A DNA stretch of 32,000 nucleotides from Candidatus Saccharimonadota bacterium (GCA_020632335.1 JACKFV010000001.1:450001-482000), one strand, 5' to 3'; shown: positions 1,266-20,175, counted from the stretch's first letter. Made by a program: numbers and translations. Notes: a model not told the origin generated them from the letters alone.

Positions 1266-1345
1266 CTCTCCCAGCGTAGATTCTGCAGAGGGATCGTCAA
1301 CTGAAATACTTGCTCTTGGCGCTTCAGCGCTGGTATACTAGGGAG

Positions 1346-3781
1346 ATGCCTTTTCGGATACCCTTGCTGTCTCGTTACCTGCAGATACCGCCGGTGCTGC
1401 TGCCCGGGCTGCGGGTGACCTTCTGGCTGCGCTGTCTCTTTACCATCGGCATGATCATCAGCTGGACGGTGCTGCTGAGCCTGTGGGTAGAGCAGTACAG
1501 CATAGACTCGCTGCTGTGGTTCTTTGCCGCGGACGGGGTGGCGGCGCTGGTGGGGGGGCTGCTGAGCCTGTGGCTCTCGGCCCGCTACAGTACAGACGAG
1601 CACTGCTGGCTGACGGGCCTGGCGACTCTGGTGAGCCTGAGCGCGGCGTTTGCGTTGCTGCCGGTATCTGTGGAGGGGTTCTTTGCGCTCAGCTTCATCG
1701 CTAAGGGGGTGTTTTTCTTCCCGCTCTCGCTGCTGCTGTACCGGCATGCGGAGGAGCAGCTGAGCCCTTCAGATGCTCGGCGAGTGATGCCGTTGATCAA
1801 GTCTGGGGCGACCATAGGGGTACTGCTGGGGGCGGGGGTGCTGCTCATTGCGCTGCCCTACCTGAGCGAACCCGTGCTGCTGAGCCTCTGGGGTGTGGCG
1901 ACCCTCGGGGTGCTGCTGCTCTACCAGACGCGGGATTTCCTCGCGCCTGAGGTGCACATGCTGCCCCCGCAGGAGGCCCAGCCACCGGTGACCTTTGCGG
2001 CCCTGTGGCAGACGGTGCGCCAGACGCCCCTGCTCCAGAGTCTGCTGCTGCTGACTCCACTGGCGGCGCTGATCTTCACGGTGATTGAGTTCCAGTTCAC
2101 GGTAGAGCTCTTCGACCACTACGTGCATACGGCGCTGACTCTCCCTCCGCAGAGCCTGCAGGCGAGCATACTGGGCGACGCAGTACGGGGGCTGCAGCAG
2201 GTGGCACAGAGTACCGTGCACGAGATACAGAGCCTGAAGCAGACGGTCATCAGCACCCAGCTGATGCACCACACGCTGCTGCACGATCTCTCGTTTTTTC
2301 ATCTGCTGTTTGCGGCGATTGCCCTGCTCTTCCAGGCGATGGTGACGCCGCTGGCACTGCAACGGTGGGGGATCATCGGCACCATGCTGAGCTACGCAGT
2401 GGCGGTGGCGGGGCTGCTGACGGGCTATGCGACGGGGCTGTATGGCGCCAGTACGCTGCGGACGCTGCAGCACGGGGTGTATAGCCTGGGTACGGTGCCT
2501 AACCACATGATGTACTATGTCTTTCCGCCGCACATGCGGGAGGCGCTGCGGGCGCTGTATGGTGGGGTACTGGAGTACGGCGGCATGCTGCTGGCGCTGC
2601 TTTTCATCGGGTTGCTGCCCGTGGTGGAGGTGACGGGCCTGGCCATCATCGCGGGGATGGTGGGGGTGGGGCTCGTCTGGCGGATGCGCGAGCAGTTCAC
2701 CCAGCTGTGCATAGCGCGGAGCCAACGGCACCATGACCCGACCAGTGTCTTCCATGCGCTGGAGTTTCTCTCGCACCGGAGCCTACCGGTGACCCATACG
2801 CTGACGGATATGCTGCTGCTCCAGAGTAAGCAGACCCCCTACGCGGAGCAGCTCCTCCGCACAATAATAGAGCGGCAGGACCCCGAGTCCCTCCCACAGC
2901 TGGTGCGGGCGCTGCAGCAGCAGGAGAATAGCGAGCAGCTCCTGGAGCGGGTGCTAGACGCGCTCAGTGCCCTCAAGGGCATTCCGGAGTTTCTCCAGCA
3001 GCATGCCTTTACGCATCATGCGCTGGTGCAGGTGCTGGAGGGCTTCCTCCACCACCATAATTCCTACATCAAGAAGCAGGCGGTGCTGCTGCTCATGCGC
3101 ATCATCCCTACGCAGGAGGTGGTGCCGTTCTTCCTCCAGACGCTGCAGCATACTGACCCCAAGCTCCAGGCTATCTATCTGCGCAGCCTGACCGCCGTGC
3201 ACGACCCGCAGATGACCCAGTATATCTTGCCCTACCTGCACCACCAGCAGGACGTGCGCGTACGTACCCGGGCGCTACTGGTGCTGTGGCAGTATATGGA
3301 GCAAGGAGAACTGCGGGCGCAGCTCCACACGCTGCTGCAGGGCGAGGAGGCCGAGGAGCACATTGCGGCGCTGTACACCCTGGGAGAAGTCCATGACGCA
3401 GAGAGCCTGCCGCAGATAGCCCAGCAGCTCACCTCTCCAGACCCCTATGTGCGGCTCCATGCGCTCATCGCCCTGGCCAAATGTGGGCAGACGCAGTACC
3501 TGGGAGCGCTGGTGCATATCCTCATGAACGGGGAAAAGGACTACCGGTTTGCGGCCTTTGGCATGAGTAAGCGCCTGCCAGACCACGTAGCGGCGCAGCT
3601 GCAGCACCTGCTGCATGAGCGGGTCAGTCGGGCCATCGGGGGGATCCTCCACACCCACAACCACACCCGGCTGCCCTATAGCGCGCGGCAGAGCCTGCAC
3701 TGGCTTTACAAGCTGCTGGGCAAGTATGACGCCATCATGCAGCTGCAGCACTGGCATAGCGGAAGCGAAGACGATAGATAG
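1346..3781 (+). CDS. Polytopic membrane protein (MFS/TLC-transporter-like N-terminal half) fused to C-terminal HEAT/PBS-lyase-like repeats
   Basis: The long ORF is listed from TTG 1310; the first ATG is at 1346. The N-terminal ~460 aa consist of many hydrophobic helices. The C-terminal ~330 aa contain repeated HEAT-like units (e.g. DPKLQAIYLRSLTAVHDP, QQDVRVRTRALLVLWQY, SPDPYVRLHALIALAKCG). The 3' end overlaps convergent trmB by 47 nt. Confidence 0.6.
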   Translation: MPFRIPLLSRYLQIPPVLLPGLRVTFWLRCLFTIGMIISWTVLLSLWVEQYSIDSLLWFFAADGVAALVGGLLSLWLSARYSTDEHCWLTGLATLVSLSAAFALLPVSVEGFFALSFIAKGVFFFPLSLLLYRHAEEQLSPSDARRVMPLIKSGATIGVLLGAGVLLIALPYLSEPVLLSLWGVATLGVLLLYQTRDFLAPEVHMLPPQEAQPPVTFAALWQTVRQTPLLQSLLLLTPLAALIFTVIEFQFTVELFDHYVHTALTLPPQSLQASILGDAVRGLQQVAQSTVHEIQSLKQTVISTQLMHHTLLHDLSFFHLLFAAIALLFQAMVTPLALQRWGIIGTMLSYAVAVAGLLTGYATGLYGASTLRTLQHGVYSLGTVPNHMMYYVFPPHMREALRALYGGVLEYGGMLLALLFIGLLPVVEVTGLAIIAGMVGVGLVWRMREQFTQLCIARSQRHHDPTSVFHALEFLSHRSLPVTHTLTDMLLLQSKQTPYAEQLLRTIIERQDPESLPQLVRALQQQENSEQLLERVLDALSALKGIPEFLQQHAFTHHALVQVLEGFLHHHNSYIKKQAVLLLMRIIPTQEVVPFFLQTLQHTDPKLQAIYLRSLTAVHDPQMTQYILPYLHHQQDVRVRTRALLVLWQYMEQGELRAQLHTLLQGEEAEEHIAALYTLGEVHDAESLPQIAQQLTSPDPYVRLHALIALAKCGQTQYLGALVHILMNGEKDYRFAAFGMSKRLPDHVAAQLQHLLHERVSRAIGGILHTHNHTRLPYSARQSLHWLYKLLGKYDAIMQLQHWHSGSEDDR

Positions 3782-4349
3782 GCTGCCCCTGCTTGGCCTG
3801 CTCCCACTTGGTCATGACGCCGTGGGGGCTCTGAGAAAAGCGCTCCCACTCCCACCCCCCGAGCTCCTCCAGCAGTGCGAGGGTGTCCTCGTAGTAGCGG
3901 GGTTGGTCAGTCTGGAGGAGAAACGTGGTACTGGCGGGCACCCAGGGCATCAGGCTCTGGAGGAAGGCGCGGCTTAGCACCCGGCGTTTGTGGTGGCGGG
4001 GTTTGAGCCAGGGGTCTGGGAAGTTGATATACACTTCCTCCAGCGTGGCTCCCTTGGCGAGACAGGGCTCTAGTATGGCGCGGAAGTTCCGGCAGGCATC
4101 ACCACCAAAGACGGCCACCCGGGGGTCATCAGCCCAGTGGTCTTGTAGCCACTGGACGATAGGCTCTCGTACCTCAAAGGCAATAAAGGCATGCCCGGGC
4201 AGCTGCGCTCGCAAGCCGTCGAGGAACTCGCCCTTCATACAACCGATGTCGACGATGATCGGCCAGGGCTCCGGGAAGCCCGTAAAGGTGTGGGTCTGGA
4301 GCTGGCTGAGCGGGTTGACGTGTGGCCGTACCCGACGAGGGAAGAGCAT
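3735..4349 (-). CDS. trmB: tRNA (guanine-N7)-methyltransferase
   Basis: 204-aa ORF with the TrmB signature INFPDPWLKPRHHKRR and an upstream SAM-binding-like segment IVDIGCMKGEF. The length is typical for the family. Confidence 0.85.
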   Translation of the reverse strand: MLFPRRVRPHVNPLSQLQTHTFTGFPEPWPIIVDIGCMKGEFLDGLRAQLPGHAFIAFEVREPIVQWLQDHWADDPRVAVFGGDACRNFRAILEPCLAKGATLEEVYINFPDPWLKPRHHKRRVLSRAFLQSLMPWVPASTTFLLQTDQPRYYEDTLALLEELGGWEWERFSQSPHGVMTKWEQAKQGQPIYRLRFRYASAAAA

Positions 4350-4404
4350 GCCTGCACGCTAGCGGGAGGCGAGGGGTTGTCAAAAAGGAGTCTGCAACAC
4401 CTAC

Positions 4405-4432
4405 TTGATTCTTGTAAAAAAAGGATTATAAC
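4405..4432 (+). promoter_or_regulatory. Candidate sigma70-type promoter TTGATT-N16-TATAAC upstream of the TPR gene
   Basis: TTGATT at 4405-4410 and TATAAC at 4427-4432. The ATG at 4439 lies only 6 nt after the -10 element, so the mRNA may be leaderless. Confidence 0.3.
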
Positions 4433-4438
4433 CATAGC

Positions 4439-5056
4439 ATGGCTATGCGTTCCTACCCGGATGCTATCTATACCCTCCTCGAACAAGCCTGGGAGGCCAA
4501 GCTGGAGGAGGAATACGAGGAGGCGATGGCGCTTCTCCAGACCATCATCCTGGAGGAGCCAGCGTGCCTGGAAGCCTATGAGGAGCTGGCGGACGTGTAC
4601 CTGCACCTGCGGGAGCTGGATAAGGCCGAGAAGGCCATCACCCGGGCGCTGCAGCTGGACCCTCGCTCGGCCAATGCGCACTACCTGCGGGGCTTCCTCT
4701 ACAGTCTGGAGAGCAACTGGGAGGCGAGCGTAACCGAGCTGGAGCAGGCGGATAAAGCTACGCCGAACCACCCGGAGATCCTCCGCTGTTTGGGCTGGAG
4801 CCTCTATAATGCGCAGCGTCGCGCGCAGGGCATCAGTGTGCTGGAGCGGTCGGTGGAGATGTTCCCGGAGAATATAGACGCGGCCAGTGACCTGGGGGTC
4901 TGCTATATGAATAGTGGGGAGTTTACCAAGGCCGAGGAAGTCTTTGAGCGAGTGCTGGAGCTGGATAGTGATAGTCCGCATGCCCGGGAGTGTCTGAAGT
5001 TTGTGCGGCAAATGAAGAAGCTCCTGGACGGTGGTGAGGGCGCTGATGCCTCCTAG
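4439..5056 (+). CDS. Tetratricopeptide (TPR) repeat protein
   Basis: 205-aa ORF with consecutive 34-residue TPR-like units (e.g. AYEELADVYLHLRELDKAEKAITRALQLDPRSANAHYLRGFLY and ILRCLGWSLYNAQRRAQGISVLERSVEMFPEN). Confidence 0.75.
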   Translation: MAMRSYPDAIYTLLEQAWEAKLEEEYEEAMALLQTIILEEPACLEAYEELADVYLHLRELDKAEKAITRALQLDPRSANAHYLRGFLYSLESNWEASVTELEQADKATPNHPEILRCLGWSLYNAQRRAQGISVLERSVEMFPENIDAASDLGVCYMNSGEFTKAEEVFERVLELDSDSPHARECLKFVRQMKKLLDGGEGADAS

Positions 5057-5409
5057 AAGTGGTTACGACTGCAAAGAGGCAATAGTATTGCTCAGTGGTT
5101 TGCCAGGAGCCTGTTTTACAGTATCACTACGGTTGATGGGCGAGGGCTATGAAAGAGACCTCGACGTTCACTTTTTATGCTACTACACAACGGCGCGCTA
5201 TTACAAGACTTACAAAGCCGCATTACACTACCACCCACACCATAGAGCTGGTCCCCTGTATATGGCCGCCATGGATGCCCCATACTGCTCTATAAAAGAG
5301 GGAGAGGGTGGATGGAGTATATTTGTGTAACGTATGAAAGCTGTTTTATATTCTTGATATCTCTAAGCGGAATCGTACACTAGCATTTGTAATTATTAAC
5401 TGTAAAATA

Positions 5410-6351
5410 ATGTTGGCAAAAACACTCAGCATGGGAACGACTCTCACTGGTGGAGAGACCTCTACACTCTGTTATATCTACAAGAATGGGGATGGTCCTT
5501 CTACATTTATAAATGGTGGTACACATGGAGGAGAAATTACCTATCCTGTATTTCGTAAATTGGCTGCGCATTTGGAGAAGCATGAATTCAAGGGAAAGAT
5601 CACACTACTACCGGTATCCAACCCCATAGCGTGGTCGCAGCGGTTGTACTTCTCTACCGCTGGTAAGTTCTCTATGTACGATGGTAAAGACTGGAACTGG
5701 AGATACCCTGGCAACGCAGATGGTGTAGTGCAAGAACGATTTGCCCATATGGTATTCACCGAGGTTGTACAGCATGATTTTGTGATAGATCTGCACACTT
5801 CACGATGGAGTAAACCATTCCTCATTACTGGGAAGTCAGAACACCTTCCGTTAGCCAAAGCAAGTGGGATAGACTATACTTATGCTTCGTTAGACGCGCA
5901 TGATCTGAAAGGAACAAACATTATGCCATTGAGCTACGCCGCTGATATGCACTGTAAGAATGGTGGAGTGACACTTGAATGTGGCTCGCATGACAGTATG
6001 AATGACGCAGTGTTTGAATACTGCTACAAGGTAGTGTTGAATATGCTGGTTTTCCAGGGGCATTTTGATGACTATATTCCATTGAGTAATGGTATGTATT
6101 ACACGGGATATCATACCTATACTGCACCCGAAGCTGGCTTTGTGGAGTATCATCATGCCTTCTGGGATACCGTAAAAGCAGGTGAGGTGTTGTATACCCT
6201 CTACCCAGCTAATGACCTGAAACGAAAAGTCGAAATAATAGCTAAGGCTGACTGCCTGGTAGCTAAATACCAGCCTACGCACATAGCCCAGCCTGGAGAT
6301 CAAGTAGTAATGACCGTGCCGACAGACCAGCTACACCTGTACTCGCAGTAA
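5410..6351 (+). CDS. Succinylglutamate desuccinylase/aspartoacylase (AstE/AspA, M14-like) family zinc hydrolase
   Basis: 313-aa ORF in an AT-richer segment. Family hallmarks occur in the expected order: GGTHGGE (His/Glu zinc ligands), DWNWRYPG (variant of D-x-N-R-x-F-P-G), IDLHTS (third zinc His) and TLECG. Confidence 0.7.
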   Translation: MLAKTLSMGTTLTGGETSTLCYIYKNGDGPSTFINGGTHGGEITYPVFRKLAAHLEKHEFKGKITLLPVSNPIAWSQRLYFSTAGKFSMYDGKDWNWRYPGNADGVVQERFAHMVFTEVVQHDFVIDLHTSRWSKPFLITGKSEHLPLAKASGIDYTYASLDAHDLKGTNIMPLSYAADMHCKNGGVTLECGSHDSMNDAVFEYCYKVVLNMLVFQGHFDDYIPLSNGMYYTGYHTYTAPEAGFVEYHHAFWDTVKAGEVLYTLYPANDLKRKVEIIAKADCLVAKYQPTHIAQPGDQVVMTVPTDQLHLYSQ

Positions 6352-6363
6352 GAAAACACACGC

Positions 6364-6413
6364 AAAATAAATAACCGTAGAACCCAGGGAACTACGGTTA
6401 TTTGTTTTGTGTG
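6364..6413. terminator. Bidirectional rho-independent terminator between the convergent deacylase and ATP-grasp genes
   Basis: Perfect 8-bp stem AACCGTAG (6373-6380) / CTACGGTT (6392-6399) with an 11-nt loop. It is flanked by an A-rich run on the left (aaaataaat) and a T-rich run on the right (atttgttttgtgtg). Confidence 0.6.
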
Positions 6414-6433
6414 TCAGCATTAAAATCAGCTAG

Positions 6434-7972
6434 TTAGGCCAATACAGTACGGTATTGCTCCAACCCGGCATAGCGGTAAAATGTGCTGGCAAGAAGCTCA
6501 CCAAGCTCACTCAAATTATAACCATTGCCGCTCACAAAAAGCGGTGACTTGTTATGACTTGATAGTCCGACGTAGCCTGCGGGGAAACCATCACCAACAA
6601 GTTTGTAGTGCTGTCCAGGTCGCCCCCAGCCATAAGATCGTACCACTACACGAAGTTGATGTGGATCGTGAAAATCCCTCATGGTTGCAGGGATGAGTTG
6701 TCCTGCTTCCACAAACCAATACCCGTTAAGGTCTTTTGTGATCATGACTTTTTCGGTTTCGGTGAATACTGGCGGAAATAGTTTTAGGTATCCTCCAGGC
6801 GCCATAGCGAGTACATGCTCGTTGTAAACGCCTGGATCAGGGAATAGGCTTTCTTCTACACCCAAACCGGCAGCTAACGCCAGCATACTCATGCTGGGGA
6901 TGCCAGCGTCGTGACATGCGGTGTCGCATTGGTCATCTGGACCTTGGCCTCGAGCATTGATTTCGTTGTTGAGTCCAATGCTATTATCAGCTGATAATAT
7001 CCAGTCCAGGCCACACTTTCCGTAAAACTCTAATACTTTGGCGGCATAGGTTCCGATGGCGGTACAGCTGGTCACGAAGTGGGCGTACTGATTTTCTGTG
7101 AGCAGGCCACTACTGAGTTTGCCAGATTCCCAGTCGTTACCAGGACCAGCACCAGCAGGACAAAAACAGGATTTTAATCCAACAGGTTTGATAGAGGGAC
7201 CACCAGCACGGAAGTATGTCCCGTGAGGTGTTATCACCATACCACTGTTACTGGGCAAACCTTCCACAAATGGCATGATACGCAATGCTCCATGTCCTTT
7301 GTGAAATTCTACTGCTTCTGTGTAATTTTTTTCATTTTTAATGAATGAAATACTACTAGCACCGTCCGTGAATCTGGTGCCGCCAGCACTTTGTAGAATT
7401 TGGAGTACTAACCTCTTGCTTCCACAAAAAGTAACGGCTTCCTCGTAGGTCATGTCAATTCTGGAAGCATCGACATAGGCTTTTAACGGTATGCTGTAAT
7501 TCAGGCCCATACCAGCATAAAACATGGGTAGTGAAGCCTTATTTTCCAGGATTTTTTTCAACTGTTTTGGTGGAGACAAAACAGTAACATTTGGCATAAC
7601 TCGTAGTGTGTCTACAGCGTCATGCGCGGCGTAGTCTGGGATAAACAATACCTTTTTGCGGTCACGAAGTGCCTTACGACACAAGCTGGTGATAGCATCC
7701 CAGTAGGGTTGGTAGCTCCATACAGAGCCTTGCTGTGGACCGTCTGGGTATTCGGTCTCTAGTGCGAAGAGTTTGCTTGTCCAATCCCCTTCCAATGCTC
7801 CCGCACTGGCAGTGTAGTAATGTGTAAAAGGGGGTAATACCCCCTGGCACACCAAGTGTGGTAACGAGGTCGACGCCTTGTTTGCCATGCCAACGACATA
7901 GTCAAAGGTTCGCCATTTTTTCGCGATGGCCTCTTGTAATAATTTGTAAGAGGCCTCTAGTTTTGTTATCAT
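6434..7972 (-). CDS. ATP-grasp fold ligase-like protein (large, with unassigned N-terminal region)
   Basis: 512-aa ORF, AT-richer than the backbone. ATP-grasp-like segments occur in canonical order: ENKASLPMFYAGMGLNYSIP, KRLVLQILQSAGGTRF, ALRIMPFVEG and GKCGLDWILSADNSIGLNNEINARGQG (D...E-x-N-x-R type metal/ATP motif). Assignment is by eye only. Confidence 0.6.
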   Translation of the reverse strand: MITKLEASYKLLQEAIAKKWRTFDYVVGMANKASTSLPHLVCQGVLPPFTHYYTASAGALEGDWTSKLFALETEYPDGPQQGSVWSYQPYWDAITSLCRKALRDRKKVLFIPDYAAHDAVDTLRVMPNVTVLSPPKQLKKILENKASLPMFYAGMGLNYSIPLKAYVDASRIDMTYEEAVTFCGSKRLVLQILQSAGGTRFTDGASSISFIKNEKNYTEAVEFHKGHGALRIMPFVEGLPSNSGMVITPHGTYFRAGGPSIKPVGLKSCFCPAGAGPGNDWESGKLSSGLLTENQYAHFVTSCTAIGTYAAKVLEFYGKCGLDWILSADNSIGLNNEINARGQGPDDQCDTACHDAGIPSMSMLALAAGLGVEESLFPDPGVYNEHVLAMAPGGYLKLFPPVFTETEKVMITKDLNGYWFVEAGQLIPATMRDFHDPHQLRVVVRSYGWGRPGQHYKLVGDGFPAGYVGLSSHNKSPLFVSGNGYNLSELGELLASTFYRYAGLEQYRTVLA

Positions 7973-8025
7973 AGGAATTTAATTTTTGCCCGCCCCCGTG
8001 AAGGTTTGGGCGTGAAAAAAATAAT

Positions 8026-8181
8026 TTACTTTTGGTCGGTTGCGGGATAAACAGGTTTCTTTAGATCGTCGCCTTTTTGCGTCTCATCCGCACCGACGGT
8101 TGTTGCGATGGTACATTTATCATCGCTGAGTGGTTGCTGCTGCTGCGTATTTTTCTGGTCGCCACCTTGTTTTCCTTTCAT
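8026..8181 (-). CDS. Small ORF (51 aa) not in the supplied track: candidate substrate/precursor peptide for the downstream ATP-grasp enzyme
   Basis: Hand translation of the minus strand from ATG 8181 to TAA 8026 gives MKGKQGGDQKNTQQQQPLSDDKCTIATTVGADETQKGDDLKKPVYPATDQK. It is on the same strand as the ATP-grasp gene and 53 nt upstream of it. An AT-rich promoter-like region lies upstream (TTGAAA ... TTAAAA). No Shine-Dalgarno sequence was found, but other genes in this window also lack one. Confidence 0.35.
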   Translation of the reverse strand: MKGKQGGDQKNTQQQQPLSDDKCTIATTVGADETQKGDDLKKPVYPATDQK

Positions 8182-8398
8182 GGTAGAATTTTTTTAAAAA
8201 AAGATAATAATAGGTTTCAATGCTGATGACGTAAAACAACAAACCCACCTGCTGGCGGGAGTGGTAGAGCGATAGAATATTCTCTGATTCTACGCCATCA
8301 CACTACCCGCTGGAGCAGCCCAGCGAATACAGTGACAGCGTACAACGAGAAATTTCGATTGCATCTGATGAGACTTATAAATTGCTCTGGCAATATTG

Positions 8399-8422
8399 TC
8401 AAGCAAATTCCCACTTGCTTGA
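8399..8422. repeat. Perfect 8-bp inverted repeat TCAAGCAA-N8-TTGCTTGA upstream of the R-M gene
   Basis: Read directly from the sequence at 8399-8406 and 8415-8422, about 50 nt upstream of ATG 8472. It could be an operator or a hairpin; function unknown. Confidence 0.4.
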
Positions 8423-8471
8423 TTTGCTACCAGTCTAGACACCAGCACCGCACGGCCTACACTGCAGAAGC

Positions 8472-11400
8472 ATGCCCATAGCCGAGTACCTCCAGAGCGT
8501 GATAAGCATCTACGAGCAGGGCAATGGCACCGAGCACAGCTACCGTCCGGCGCTGCAACAGCTGCTGCATTCGCTCAGCACAGGCGTCACGGCGACTAAT
8601 GAACCTAAACGAGAGAAGTGCGGCGCGCCCGACTATATTCTCACGCGTGGGCAGATTCCTATCGGCTACATTGAGGCGAAGGATATCTTGCCCGGCATAC
8701 TGGATAAACGGGATACCCAGGCGCAGGTCCATAAGTATTTTGACGGGGAGCTGGGGTACAACTTCCTCCTGACGGACTACGTGGAGTTTCGCTTCTACCG
8801 TGGCGGGACGCTGGTGGAGACTGTGCGCATTGCTGACCGTTGGAATAACGCGCTCACTCCGCTGCCAGACCACTATGAGAAGCTGCGACTGCTGCTCGAG
8901 AGCTTCTTGCAATATCGTGGGCAGACGCTCACGTCGTCGGCGCAGCTGGCCGAGATGATGGCGGGGAAGGCCCGTATGATGCGCCAGGTGATCCGTGAAA
9001 TGTTGGCTGATGCGGACGACCATGGTGGCGAGATTGGCGGGCAGTTGCAGGCGTTTCGGAGGATCCTCATTCATGACCTCAGCGCTGAGGCCTTTGCCGA
9101 TATGTACGCGCAGACCATCACTTATGGGCTCTTTGCCGCGCGGTATGTGGACCCCACGCTGCCGACCTTTGACCGTTATGAGGCCGCACAGCTGCTGCCC
9201 AAAACCAACCCTTTTCTCCGGAATCTCTTTGGGCAGATAGGCGCGGTGAACTTCGACGAGCGACTCCGGTGGATTGTGGACGATCTCATCGAGGTCTTTA
9301 AGGCCTGTAACGTGGCGGAACTGCTGGCGGAGTACGGCGTTGCCAGCCAGCGCCATGACCCCATTGTGCACTTCTACGAGGACTTTCTGGCTTCTTATGA
9401 CCCCGCGCTGCGCAAGGCCAGGGGGGTATGGTACACGCCCCAGAGCGTAGTGGACTGGATTGTGCAGGCGGTAGATGCGGTGCTTGTACAGCACTTTGGC
9501 TTGCCTATGGGTCTCTCAGATACGAGTAAAATCACCGTGCAGTATGGTGACGGTCCTCCGCGAGACCTCCACAGCGTGCAGATCCTCGACCCGGCTACCG
9601 GAACGGGGACCTTCCTCGCGCGGGTAGTAGAGCAGGTGCACCGCCGCATAGGGGTGAGTATGCCAGCGCTGTGGCCGCAGTACGTCGCGCAGGATCTCTT
9701 GCCACGTTTGCATGGGTTTGAGCTCCTCATGGCCAGCTACGCTATGGCGCACTTGAAGATGGACATCGTACTGCGGGAGCTAGGCGCTCCGCCACCAGAA
9801 CGCGTGGGCATTTACCTGACCAATAGCTTGGAGGAATCGCACCCGGATACCGACAGTCTCTTTAGCCAGTGGCTGAGTGATGAGGGCAATGCCGCCAACC
9901 GCATTAAGCGGGAGACGCCCGTGATGTGCGTGCTCGGCAATCCGCCCTATAGTGGCATCAGTAGTAACAAGGGCGACTATATTACTCGTCTGATAGAAGA
10001 TTATAAGTATGTAAATGGGGTACACTTTGGCGAGAAGAAGCACTGGCTGGGAGATGATTATGTGAAATTTCTACGCCTAGCGGAGCACCTGGTGGAGAAA
10101 AACGGCGAAGGCGTGGTGGGCTACATCACCAACCACGGCTATCTGGATAACCCCACCTTCCGTGGTATGCGGTGGCACCTGCTGCAGACCTTTGACGACA
10201 TCTACGTGGTGGACCTGCACGGGAATAGCTTGAAGAAAGAGATGGCTCCTGATGGGTCCGCGGATCAGAACGTCTTTGACATCATGGCAGGGGTAGCGAT
10301 ATTCCTCGGGGTGAAGACGGGGAAGAAGCCTGCAGGAGCGCTGGCACGAGTGCACCACACGGAGCTCTATGGCAAGCGGCAGGAGAAGTACGCCGCACTG
10401 GAACAGATGACGCTACAGGAGGCTCCGTGGACGGAGATAGAGAACCGTGCGCCGTACTACTTCTTTGTGCCGAAGAACTATGATATGGGAGAGGAGTACA
10501 ACAAGGGTATGAGTGTGCGGGAGATATTCCCGGTGAATGGTGTGGGGGTTGTCACGGCCCGTGATTCTTTCTGCATTGATGGCGATAAAAAAGAGCTGCA
10601 GGACAGGATTATGGACTACTTAAATACCGACACTTCTGATAGTGAGGTCCGTAGAAAATATGGACTAAAGAATTCTAGTACTTTTAAACTGTCAATTTTC
10701 CGCGAACGAGCCAGACAAAATCATAACAATAACCTTTTTAAAAAAGTATCTTATAGACCGTTTGATAATCGCTGGATTTACTATACAAAGGATGTGGTGG
10801 AACGACCGGGGACAAAACACATGCGCCATATGCTAGCGGGGGAAAATGTGGGGTTGGCATTTAATAAACCAGCACAGGGGGGTCCTGATACATTTACTGA
10901 TATATTCGTATCAAATACTATTGTAGACCAGAGCATATATTCTGCTGTTAAGAGGTCACCACATTTAGCCCCCTCTACCTCTACCCCGAAGAAACACAGG
11001 CCACCATAGACGGCAGCCTCTTACGCACACCTAACCTCAGTGACGACGCCACAGAGCGCTTTTCTGCTGCCACTGGGCTGCGGTTTGTACCTGACCACCA
11101 GCACCCAGAAGCCGGCAATACGGATACCTTCACACCGCTGGACGTGCTGGACTACATCTACGCTGTGCTGCACAGCCCACGCTACCGAGAAACGTACCAG
11201 GAGTACCTCAAGATCGACTTCCCCCGTGTGCCCCTACCAGAGGGAGCGGAACAGTTCCGAGCCCTGGCTACACTCGGTGCTCAGCTGCGAGAGCTGCACC
11301 TGCTGCAGAGTCCGCTGGTGCACCAGTACCACATGACGCTAGAGGGCGGTACAGATATGACAGTCGGCAAAATAACGAAGAAGAGCTACCAGAGCGCTAC

Positions 11401-11614
11401 CGGGCGGGTGTACATTAATGATTCGGTGTACTTTACTGGGGTGACACAGACGGCATGGGAGTTCTTCATCGGTGGCTACCAGCCTGCACAGAAGTGGCTA
11501 AAGGACCGCACTGGCAGAGTACTTGGTCTCACCGACGCACAGCACTACATGCAGATGATTGCCGCACTTGAACATACCGCGCGAGTGATGCGGGAAATAG
11601 ATGAGGCATACTGA
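8472..11614 (+). pseudogene. Type IIG (fused endonuclease / N6-adenine methyltransferase / specificity) restriction-modification enzyme, interrupted by a frameshift near 10950
   Basis: N-terminal PD-(D/E)XK-like motif (GAPDYILTRGQIPIGYIEAKD). Methyltransferase motif I (ILDPATGTGTFLA) and motif IV (VLGNPPYSG). Conserved downstream blocks YRPFDNRWIYY, then, in a different frame, PLYLYPEE...DVLDYIYAVLHSPRYRETYQEYLKIDFPRVP. The first frame stops at 11007-11009. The second frame is open from 10952 to the stop at 11612-11614. Confidence 0.75.
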
Positions 11615-12224: not shown

Positions 12225-12301
12225 TGGTGGCGAGGGGGGGACTTGAACCCCCGACCTCCGGGTTATGAATCCGACGCTCTAACCAGCTGAGCTACCTCGC
12301 C
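12225..12301 (-). tRNA. tRNA with CAU anticodon (elongator Met; Ile2/lysidine type not excluded), CCA encoded
   Basis: The reverse complement folds as a 77-nt cloverleaf. Acceptor GGCGAGG/CCTCGCC. D arm GCTC-AGCTGGTTA-GAGC. Anticodon arm TCGGA-TTCATAA-CCCGG, which has one T-G pair and one A-C pair. T arm GGGGG-TTCAAGT-CCCCC. 3' end ACCA. The G1-C72 pair argues against an initiator tRNA. Confidence 0.85.
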
Positions 12302-16763: not shown

Positions 16764-19945
<3,182 letters not shown>

Positions 19946-20055: not shown

Positions 20056-20175
20056 CCGTGTTGATGACTGTAGCAAGGAGGGTACACCCGGTCACATTCC
20101 GAACCCGGCAGTTAAGCTCCTTCGCGCCGATGGTACTTGGATCATTCCTGGGAGAGTAGGTCGTCGTCAACACGG
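20056..20175 (+). rRNA. rrf: 5S ribosomal RNA
   Basis: 120 nt. Helix I is ccgtgttgatgac / gtcgtcaacacgg. Conserved 5S blocks are cccggtcacattccgaacccggcagttaagc, gcgccgatggtac and gggagagtagg. It is followed by tgtttttttg. Confidence 0.9.

Follow-up and report, generated by a model that had tools for sequence, protein, structure and literature searches.

Among the closest described counterparts of the genes reported here are two systems of amino-acid metabolism. CphZ (AotO; PDB 8EIN/8EIP) is a cyanophycin dipeptide hydrolase of the AstE/AspA enzymes that cleaves the isodipeptide beta-Asp-Arg, and its gene groups with those for cyanophycin synthetase or cyanophycinase, or with the aot transport operon, rather than with an ATP-grasp ligase of the type described below (PMC9974463). 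In Staphylococcus, the hmrA/ldmS operon consists of two conserved genes, one for an M20D metallo-dipeptidase and one for an ATP-grasp L-Asp-L-Met ligase (PMC9486568). We analyzed a 32,000-nucleotide (nt) stretch of bacterial DNA (GCA_020632335.1 JACKFV010000001.1:450001-482000; "the window" hereafter), in which a 512-amino-acid (aa) ATP-grasp ligase is encoded next to a 313-aa hydrolase of the AstE/AspA family. We propose, with a probability of roughly 0.55, that these two genes stand on their own as a module for the synthesis and breakdown of one small amide-linked metabolite. Like hmrA/ldmS, the pair would unite an ATP-grasp amino-acid ligase and a dipeptide metallo-hydrolase in primary amino-acid metabolism (PMC9486568). 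However, its hydrolase is not of the M20D type, its genes are convergent instead of forming an operon, and it is found in candidate phyla radiation (CPR) bacteria and in Alphaproteobacteria instead of Firmicutes; the LdmS model is also not matched by the window ligase itself. A literature search found no paper describing the ligase-hydrolase pair. The gene pair is uncharacterized and the ligase family undescribed; both folds and both chemistries are of known kinds.

The ligase gene (6434..7972, minus strand; locus tag H6771_02130) is annotated as "hypothetical protein" in the public record. Its sequence alone matched no Pfam model and returned only noise from the PDB, and it scored 10.9 bits with the NCBIfam model PRK06524 "biotin carboxylase", for which the cut-off is 684. 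Among 1.84 billion cluster representatives, an exhaustive HMMER search identified 28 relatives; five of these had E-values below 1e-25 and lengths of 470-536 aa. A word-indexed search of 5.8 billion proteins, run with the ligase alone or as a family alignment, returned only the ligase itself, an artefact of the word filter. Pfam ATP-grasp_3 was matched by 10 of 21 relatives and ATP-grasp by 8 of 21; further families matched were YheCD, CPSase_L_D2, ATPgrasp_ST and ATPgrasp_Ter. PRK06524 was touched by 19 of the 21, always far under its cut-off (best E-value 5.8e-31), and a few distant relatives matched the NCBIfam models for PurT, BesA and LdmS, the LdmS-type models being matched by three distant members. 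No family member matched a RimK or graspetide-type model in Pfam or NCBIfam. When the family profile was compared with the PDB, it matched biotin-carboxylase domains (7e-09), BesA (1e-06) and an "ATP-grasp peptide ligase" over the ATP-binding segment and the catalytic "E-x-N-x-R-x-Q" segment. Chains of RimK, MdnB/C, LysX, PGM1 and TTL were absent from the best 60 matches. The family is rare, no curated model covers it, and its members all carry the name "hypothetical protein". The first-pass annotation, made from the sequence, was right to call the protein an ATP-grasp enzyme, although this became visible only through homologues and structure. Its suggestion of an undescribed family also stands, as no Pfam or NCBIfam cut-off was reached.

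Structure prediction placed the whole protein. The AlphaFold2 (AF2) model, built from a 25-sequence alignment, has a predicted local distance difference test (pLDDT) score of 89 and a predicted template modeling (pTM) score of 0.90, and is composed of a pre-ATP-grasp N domain, an ATP-grasp core and a beta-rich C-terminal region. In Foldseek it superposed over its full length on structures of biotin carboxylase (BC), PurT, PurK and L-amino-acid ligases (LAL), with E-values around 1e-13, template modeling (TM) scores of 0.5-0.65 and about 12% identity. There were 453 PDB matches at E<=0.001, and all 50 of the 50 listed were ATP-grasp enzymes aligned over approximately 470-570 columns. As modeled, the 512-aa protein is a full-length three-domain ATP-grasp enzyme of the BC/PurT/LAL structural class. 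Because the superposition extends over the full length, the N-terminal 130 aa or so, which had been considered unplaceable, are an ordinary pre-ATP-grasp domain. The size of the protein had likewise been called anomalous, along with this N-terminal region; this holds only in comparison with graspetide ligases, which are the wrong reference class, and the size is normal for BC, PurT and LAL enzymes. The profile-HMM (hidden Markov model) and structure searches proposed at that stage for both proteins confirmed their ATP-grasp and AstE/AspA identities.

The ligase family signature consists of K145, Q191, the Gly-rich loop G197-G198 and E337-I-N339-x-R341-x-Q343-G344. In alignments of 9, 21 and 25 sequences, K145, G197/G198, E337, N339 and R341 vary little or not at all, and they line up with biotin-carboxylase motifs; the invariant residues include K145, G198, E337, N339, R341, Q343 and G344. 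The Mg/phosphate-site residues of the ATP-grasp superfamily are present (K145, the Gly-rich loop, E337, N339 and R341). The three-domain fold, the Gly-rich loop and the "E-x-N-x-R-x-Q" segment are shared with BC, PurT, PurK and LAL enzymes, including the LAL BL00235 (3VOT) and BesA (8YI6). The window ligase differs from them in its low identity (about 12%) and in Q191, which sits opposite the Lys of "IKA" in each of three alignments to carboxylases ("VvQa" against "IKA"). Among close family members Q191 does not vary, and across the wider alignment it is conserved to at least 90%. These alignments indicate that the strand Lys of ATP-grasp enzymes is replaced by Gln as a family-specific deviation that is unusual for ATP-grasp enzymes; the conserved Lys of the central beta-strand is K159 in E. 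coli biotin carboxylase. We rejected a true biotin carboxylase, since the PRK06524 score was far under the cut-off and no biotin carboxyl carrier protein or carboxyltransferase gene was present in any neighborhood. A further difference from biotin carboxylase is a Pro or Thr two positions after the conserved Gln, at the place of the catalytic Glu of biotin carboxylase (E296 in E. coli).

The partner gene (5410..6351, plus strand) encodes a predicted Zn-dependent AstE/AspA-family (M14-like) amidohydrolase of 313 aa, for which the public record uses a start 7 codons later (306 aa). It matched Pfam PF24827 with 55.5 bits (cut-off 25), in keeping with the AstE/AspA-type deacylase proposed from the sequence. 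In NCBIfam, the DoeB model TIGR02994 gave 57.5 bits with a cut-off of 402.7, and no match was listed for the AstE (TIGR03242) or ASPA models. Assignments as a DoeB, AstE or aspartoacylase equivalog were rejected because the curated cut-offs were not reached. We found about 60 homologues, down to 28% identity, and those with a named source were from CPR lineages or unclassified metagenome-assembled genomes (MAGs). The AF2 model (pLDDT 94) was most similar in Foldseek to 3lwu/3fmc, uncharacterized Shewanella proteins (TM 0.83), followed by CphZ 8ein/8eip (TM 0.80) and DoeB (TM 0.79), whereas the structures of true AstE and aspartoacylase reached TM scores of only about 0.5. CphZ was third with the family profile (5e-24) and is the nearest characterized relative with a solved structure.

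All 48 of 48 homologues have the Zn ligands H39, E42 and H129 as well as the catalytic E190, and these residues lie within the motifs by which the deacylase had originally been recognized. With these invariant residues, the hydrolase is predicted to be an intact AstE/AspA zinc amidohydrolase. We mapped the rest of the active site with a profile alignment and the published residue roles of CphZ, in which R102, N112 and R113 form a carboxylate clamp, D222 and E223 form the pocket for the basic side chain, and D181 and K366 contact the Asp moiety (PMC9974463). Through the clamp, CphZ binds the amino acid that it releases by its free alpha-carboxylate (PMC9974463). The two-domain fold, Zn triad, catalytic Glu and "G-[KR]-F" loop are common to CphZ and the window family, and the N-R of the clamp is retained in part. 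K86, at the position of CphZ R102 in the "G-[KR]-F" loop, is invariant (48/48), and N96, conserved in 46 of 48, matches CphZ N112; the alignment with 2qj8 is gapped at this loop. Position 97 is Arg in 35 of 48 homologues. The window protein reads W97-R98 (N-W-R in place of N-R-x), so the Arg for the substrate carboxylate is shifted by one position within residues 96-98, and Trp is found at position 97 in three other family members. The alignment suggests that the hydrolase family may keep a CphZ-type carboxylate clamp, made up of K86, N96 and usually R97.

The remaining specificity residues differ. CphZ has its D222/E223 pocket in a 12-residue insertion relative to the family profile, with no counterpart here, and the position of CphZ D181 is Ser in 34 of 48 homologues and Ala in 13 of 48. 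The hydrolase is also approximately 55 residues shorter than CphZ, and no position could be assigned to K366. After this mapping, we rejected membership in CphZ proper, and the residue pattern indicates a sister enzyme of CphZ whose side-chain pocket is different.

We then asked how constant the pairing is. Related loci (labeled L001 to L023 below) were reached from the deacylase homologues and from the ligase family, and both families were mapped by HMMs in each locus; scans of GTDB and metagenomes with a narrow motif pattern had returned only 2 and 3 loci, respectively. Of 15 related loci, 13 have the ligase and hydrolase genes side by side. The two genes are convergent neighbors in the window and in L001, L004, L006, L009, L016 (Nomurabacteria), L017 (Saccharibacteria), L018 and L020, and adjacent and co-directional in L011 and L013 (CPR3). 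Two GC-rich loci, L021 and L023, are also adjacent and convergent; their deacylase belongs to a 90% cluster with proteins named from Alphaproteobacteria MAGs, and their ligase-like protein of 582-588 aa retains "EINDRQQGPTDQ". Counted as distinct adjacent pairs, there are 12, of which 10 are convergent and 2 co-directional, with intergenic gaps from -4 to 91 nt. For 11 loci, the pairwise identities of the ligases are correlated with those of the hydrolases (Pearson 0.95, Mantel p ~2e-4). An all-against-all comparison of neighbors revealed no third recurring gene beside the pair. Ligase and hydrolase are a conserved unit, mainly in ultra-small CPR bacteria of several phyla and also in Alphaproteobacteria MAGs. 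The functional coupling of the two genes put forward in the first-pass annotation is borne out by their adjacency and co-divergence. The neighborhood survey that it had called for yielded the recurring AstE/AspA partner and no conserved short upstream open reading frame (ORF).

A few loci depart from this arrangement. The ligase is missing beside the deacylase of L008, and the hydrolase beside the ligase-like genes of L014 and L015. In L014 (Levybacteria; 1300-9476), the ligase-like gene is near M28/M20 and M20 peptidases, a histone-deacetylase-family gene (PF00850), a Lys/Orn/Arg-type decarboxylase and lysyl-tRNA synthetase (LysRS), and this locus may represent a non-orthologous replacement of the hydrolase. 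A 304-aa gene upstream of this ligase-like gene was considered as a deacylase and found not to be one. In L015 (8001-11146, plus strand), a 496-aa relative from Embleya scabrispora lies between TrwC-relaxase genes and overlaps a gene for a 552-aa protein with no Pfam match, a mobile-element context unlike that of the CPR pairs. In L019, a different AstE/AspA gene is located one gene away from the ligase: at 8660-10898 on the plus strand, an unannotated 436-aa ORF comes after the ligase and is overlapped by the next gene, a more distant member of the AstE/AspA family (374 aa), and there is no convergent partner of the usual kind. The locus could have undergone a partner replacement or could contain a frameshifted region.

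Genes around the related pairs often encode tRNA synthetases, GatB, DnaJ, trigger factor and peptidases. A non-discriminating aspartyl-tRNA synthetase (AspRS) is present in L001, L006 and L020, asparaginyl-tRNA synthetase (AsnRS) in L011, and GatB in L004 and L009. In L018, an arginyl-tRNA synthetase (ArgRS) gene and then an arginase-family gene are directly upstream of the ligase; an arginase-family gene adjoins the deacylase in L016, and L004 contains an arginine-decarboxylase-like gene. In L001, the closest related pair, the 600-aa non-discriminating AspRS (2674-4476, minus strand) is fused to a YbaK/Cys-tRNA(Pro)-deacylase-like editing domain.

The unpaired genes and the nearby peptidases could be read as one-way salvage, in which the hydrolase would free an amino acid from scavenged N-acyl-amino acids or isodipeptides while the ligase builds a different compound. 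CPR bacteria are scavengers, which would suit such a role, and peptidases are encoded close to several pairs (M1 in L006, M28/M20 in L009 and L014, and M20 near the L014 ligase-like gene); each gene also occurs alone, the hydrolase in L008 and the ligase-like gene in L014 and L015. However, tight co-divergence and constant adjacency best fit a shared chemistry. Nothing else separates one-way salvage from the make-and-break module, and we consider it an improbable alternative.

The frequent translation and proteostasis neighbors (AspRS, AsnRS, ArgRS, LysRS, GatB, DnaJ and trigger factor) speak for another explanation, that the substrate is the C-terminus of a protein, possibly a translation-related one. 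The ligase would add amino acids, as RimK does on S6 and TTL/TTLL on tubulin, and the M14-like hydrolase would trim them in the manner of cytosolic carboxypeptidases. Pairing an ATP-grasp ligase with an M14-type peptidase is the logic of tubulin tyrosination and glutamylation, and the clamp residues K86, N96 and R97 would recognize any free C-terminal alpha-carboxylate. Several results make reversible tailing doubtful all the same. RimK-type models were not matched, RimK, LysX and TTL were missing from the best 60 PDB profile matches, and no conserved candidate target gene was found beside the pair. The hydrolase also retains the full-length C-terminal beta-domain of AstE/AspA enzymes, which in aspartoacylase is reportedly held to limit access to small substrates (Bitto et al., 2007). 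Its relatives CphZ and DoeB act on small molecules.

By analogy, we favor a small-molecule role for the make-and-break module: distant ligase relatives match PurT, BesA and LdmS, and the characterized kin of the hydrolase have small substrates. The structural resemblance of the ligase model to 3vot, together with the weak BesA and LdmS matches of distant relatives, suggests that L-amino-acid-ligase activity may be present. The ligase would use ATP to phosphorylate a carboxylate, which it would then join to a free amino acid through the alpha-amino group, yielding a dipeptide, an isodipeptide of the beta-Asp-X or gamma-Glu-X type, or an N-acyl-amino acid. That same bond would be the one cleaved by the hydrolase, with release of the amino acid. 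Convergent transcription with a common terminator would allow separate control of synthesis and breakdown, as expected for a reserve, protectant or salvage compound.

A tentative lead to the substrate is Asp plus a basic amino acid, because of the neighbors (AspRS, AsnRS, GatB, ArgRS, LysRS, the arginase-family ureohydrolase and the arginine-decarboxylase-like gene) and the kinship with CphZ. This lead is weak: the CphZ pocket residues are absent, and in some loci the synteny is ancestral. A further reading, to which we give little weight, is a previously unrecognized, CphA-independent cycle in which a nitrogen-rich (iso)dipeptide or a short poly-amino-acid would serve ultra-small CPR bacteria and some Alphaproteobacteria as a reserve or protectant. 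There, the ATP-grasp family with Gln for Lys would build, for example, a beta-aspartyl-basic-amino-acid compound, and the CphZ sister enzyme would mobilize it to feed tRNA charging and arginine or polyamine metabolism.

Several points weigh against the make-and-break module. The identities of both enzymes come from sequence and predicted structure. Q191 in place of the strand Lys means that ATP binding may be atypical. On the hydrolase side, the window protein itself has W97-R98 where 35 of 48 relatives have R97, and because the D222/E223 guanidinium pocket is absent and the D181 position is Ser or Ala, beta-Asp-Arg itself is not indicated as the substrate. The neighbor enrichment was judged from about 14 loci without a genome-wide background and includes inherited synteny (L004/L009 and L006/L020); tRNA synthetases are, moreover, common in small CPR genomes. 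Convergent genes do not constitute an operon, so the coupling is argued from adjacency and co-divergence alone. Finally, a search of the leaders for riboswitches found none, and there was no other clue to a ligand.

Between the convergent genes lies a bidirectional, intrinsic-terminator-like hairpin on both strands (6358..6414), formed by an inverted repeat (I1) with 28-nt arms that are 86% complementary. Its minimum free energies on the two strands are -33.5 and -30.1 kcal/mol (z = -8.1 and -6.5), and 0 of 200 shuffles fold as well. The hairpin is flanked by A-rich sequence on the 5' side and T-rich sequence on the 3' side. It fits the bidirectional terminator that had been proposed to serve both the ligase and the hydrolase genes. 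Searches with RNA models otherwise gave only weak matches, namely of the terminator hairpin to microRNA models and of a cyclic di-AMP model (E ~1) inside the ligase coding sequence.

The module occupies a low-GC island (5057..8471, without strand) that we delimit by the stop codon of a tetratricopeptide repeat (TPR) gene at 5056 and the start of a type IIG restriction-modification (R-M) gene at 8472. GC content in this segment (~5057-8471) is 44-49%, compared with approximately 58-64% in the flanks and mostly 56-66% in the remainder of the window. The observation of three ORFs in an AT-richer segment of a GC-rich window was correct in both coordinates and composition. GC at third codon positions (GC3) is 0.45-0.46 in both module genes and 0.66-0.77 in the TPR, TrmB-like and R-M genes. 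As both GC and GC3 are below those of the flanking genes, the cassette is compositionally foreign. The related loci have a GC content of 30-47%, near the 45-48% of the cassette, and this closeness argues that both genes were acquired horizontally as a unit. The data support a 3.4-kb low-GC insert gained horizontally by a GC-rich Candidatus Peribacteria genome. In L001, an IS200/IS605-type Y1 transposase (5294-5728, minus strand) is directly beside the deacylase, and this adjoining transposase and the compositional island here are both in support of a module that moves as a unit. We found no direct repeats flanking the island, and a search for integration signatures gave nothing convincing.

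The island contains a third candidate gene, a 51-aa ORF (8026..8181, minus strand) that is called as a gene in the public record (H6771_02135, "hypothetical protein"). It ends 53 nt upstream of the ligase start on the same strand, in an AT-rich region of approximately 500 nt between the ligase and the divergent R-M gene. This region probably holds the ligase promoter and leader. The ORF matched nothing in Pfam, NCBIfam or PADLOC and forms a singleton cluster, and tblastn found no counterpart in about 14 related loci (best E-value ~2). In L004 the ligase starts 32 nt after DnaJ and in L006 94 nt after the M1 peptidase, and gaps of this size leave no room for such an ORF; all three gaps around ligase and hydrolase in L006 are <100 nt. 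The ORF exists where the first-pass annotation placed it, but its length is within chance, since 39% of shuffles of the 499-nt intergenic region gave an ORF of at least 51 aa with ATG starts only and 65% with any start codon. The same region has several other ORFs of 34-52 aa, and the codon-position GC pattern of the 51-aa ORF is uninformative. A promoter-like site (8235-8207, minus strand), identified by a consensus match only, is located just upstream of it and suggests that the 51-aa ORF may fall within the ligase leader. A minus-strand terminator-like hairpin (8244-8259) follows a 52-aa ORF (8290-8448, minus strand) in the same region. This hairpin is probably a chance occurrence, and the region as a whole has 4 terminator-like sites with a shuffle expectation of 3.0.

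The original proposal was that this peptide is the substrate of the ligase. As a ribosomally made and post-translationally modified peptide (RiPP) system, the 51-aa Thr/Asp/Glu/Lys-rich precursor would be crosslinked or tailed in the manner of graspetides, PGM1 or LysW, and the deacylase would trim the modification or reverse it. In favor of this reading, the ORF is called as a gene 53 nt upstream on the ligase strand, and its codon-position GC pattern is compatible with coding. CPR bacteria do have graspetide systems, in which precursors from different clusters may show no detectable similarity (PMC8939145). We nevertheless consider the RiPP reading very improbable. No counterpart was detected at the related loci, two of which have gaps too small to hold one, and the length of the ORF is expected by chance. 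The ligase shares the ATP-grasp superfamily with the graspetide (microviridin-type) macrocyclases and RimK, and graspetides do occur in CPR (PMC8939145), but it is of the BC/PurT/LAL class and differs from them in structural class and size; it is not of the graspetide, RimK or PGM1 type, and no conserved precursor gene accompanies it at the related loci. The peptide also has neither the "Phhx(1,2)h" leader motif (PMC8939145) nor a visible acidic LysW-like C-terminus. The claim that the peptide is the ligase substrate is not upheld, and the 51-aa ORF is probably a bystander, not a component of the module.

A more specific analogue, LysW/LysX/LysK, resembles the three-part model superficially in its list of parts, as it combines a small protein (about 54 aa) with an ATP-grasp ligase (the RimK-like LysX) and a metallo-deacylase (LysK, an M20 enzyme). 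We rejected it because the small ORF is not conserved and has no acidic tail, and because no kinase, reductase or aminotransferase genes are present beside the pair.

On its other side, the cassette abuts the type IIG R-M gene, which matched PADLOC REase_MTase_IIG at E=1.7e-246. The alternative raised at first, that the cassette is a defence-island component working with or like this gene, has in its favor this adjacency and the foreign composition of the cassette. In PADLOC-DB, however, the R-M gene was the only match, and there was none for the ligase, the deacylase or the 51-aa ORF. No ligase relatives were found in 72,556 plasmids, 50,697 phage records and viral contigs, and no defence gene was recognized adjoining the pair at the other related loci, where the neighbors are housekeeping genes. 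The R-M gene is itself frameshifted near 10940-10960: in the window, it occupies 8472-11614 (plus strand) as two ORFs, 8472-11009 and 11144-11614, each of which encodes part of the Type_ISP_C domain. A three-frame translation shows that the R-M reading continues in another frame from approximately 10950 ("EVTTFSPLYLYPEE..."). The frameshift means that the gene is a pseudogene or that the assembly contains an error. A low-GC patch (0.43) is present at 10501-11000, in the C-terminal Type_ISP_C region of the gene. The R-M gene has a host-like GC3 of 0.66, compared with 0.45 in the cassette, and because of this difference the two were not acquired together. Their adjacency is coincidental and the R-M gene is a bystander. 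A defence role is the least probable of the explanations considered, and the first reading is corrected on both counts, as the locus is neither a RiPP cluster nor a defence system.

Elsewhere in the window, a 23S rRNA gene (16765-19945, plus strand) is 3181 nt long compared with the 2925-nt model, which suggests insertions of about 250 nt, and it is followed by a 5S rRNA gene (20060-20172, plus strand). No 16S gene precedes the 23S gene within the window, where a 679-aa ORF is upstream instead, and the rRNA genes look unlinked. A tRNA-Met (CAT) gene (12225-12301, minus strand) is located in a second lower-GC stretch (11.5-12.5 kb) without long ORFs.

CPR genomes are tiny and encode few biosynthetic enzymes, and a conserved, mobile ligase and hydrolase in them imply an important metabolite that is hidden from current annotation. 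Knowledge of the product would provide an annotation for a family without a curated model and would extend the recently discovered CphZ branch of the AstE/AspA enzymes, and a new storage or salvage compound of episymbiotic bacteria might come to light as well.

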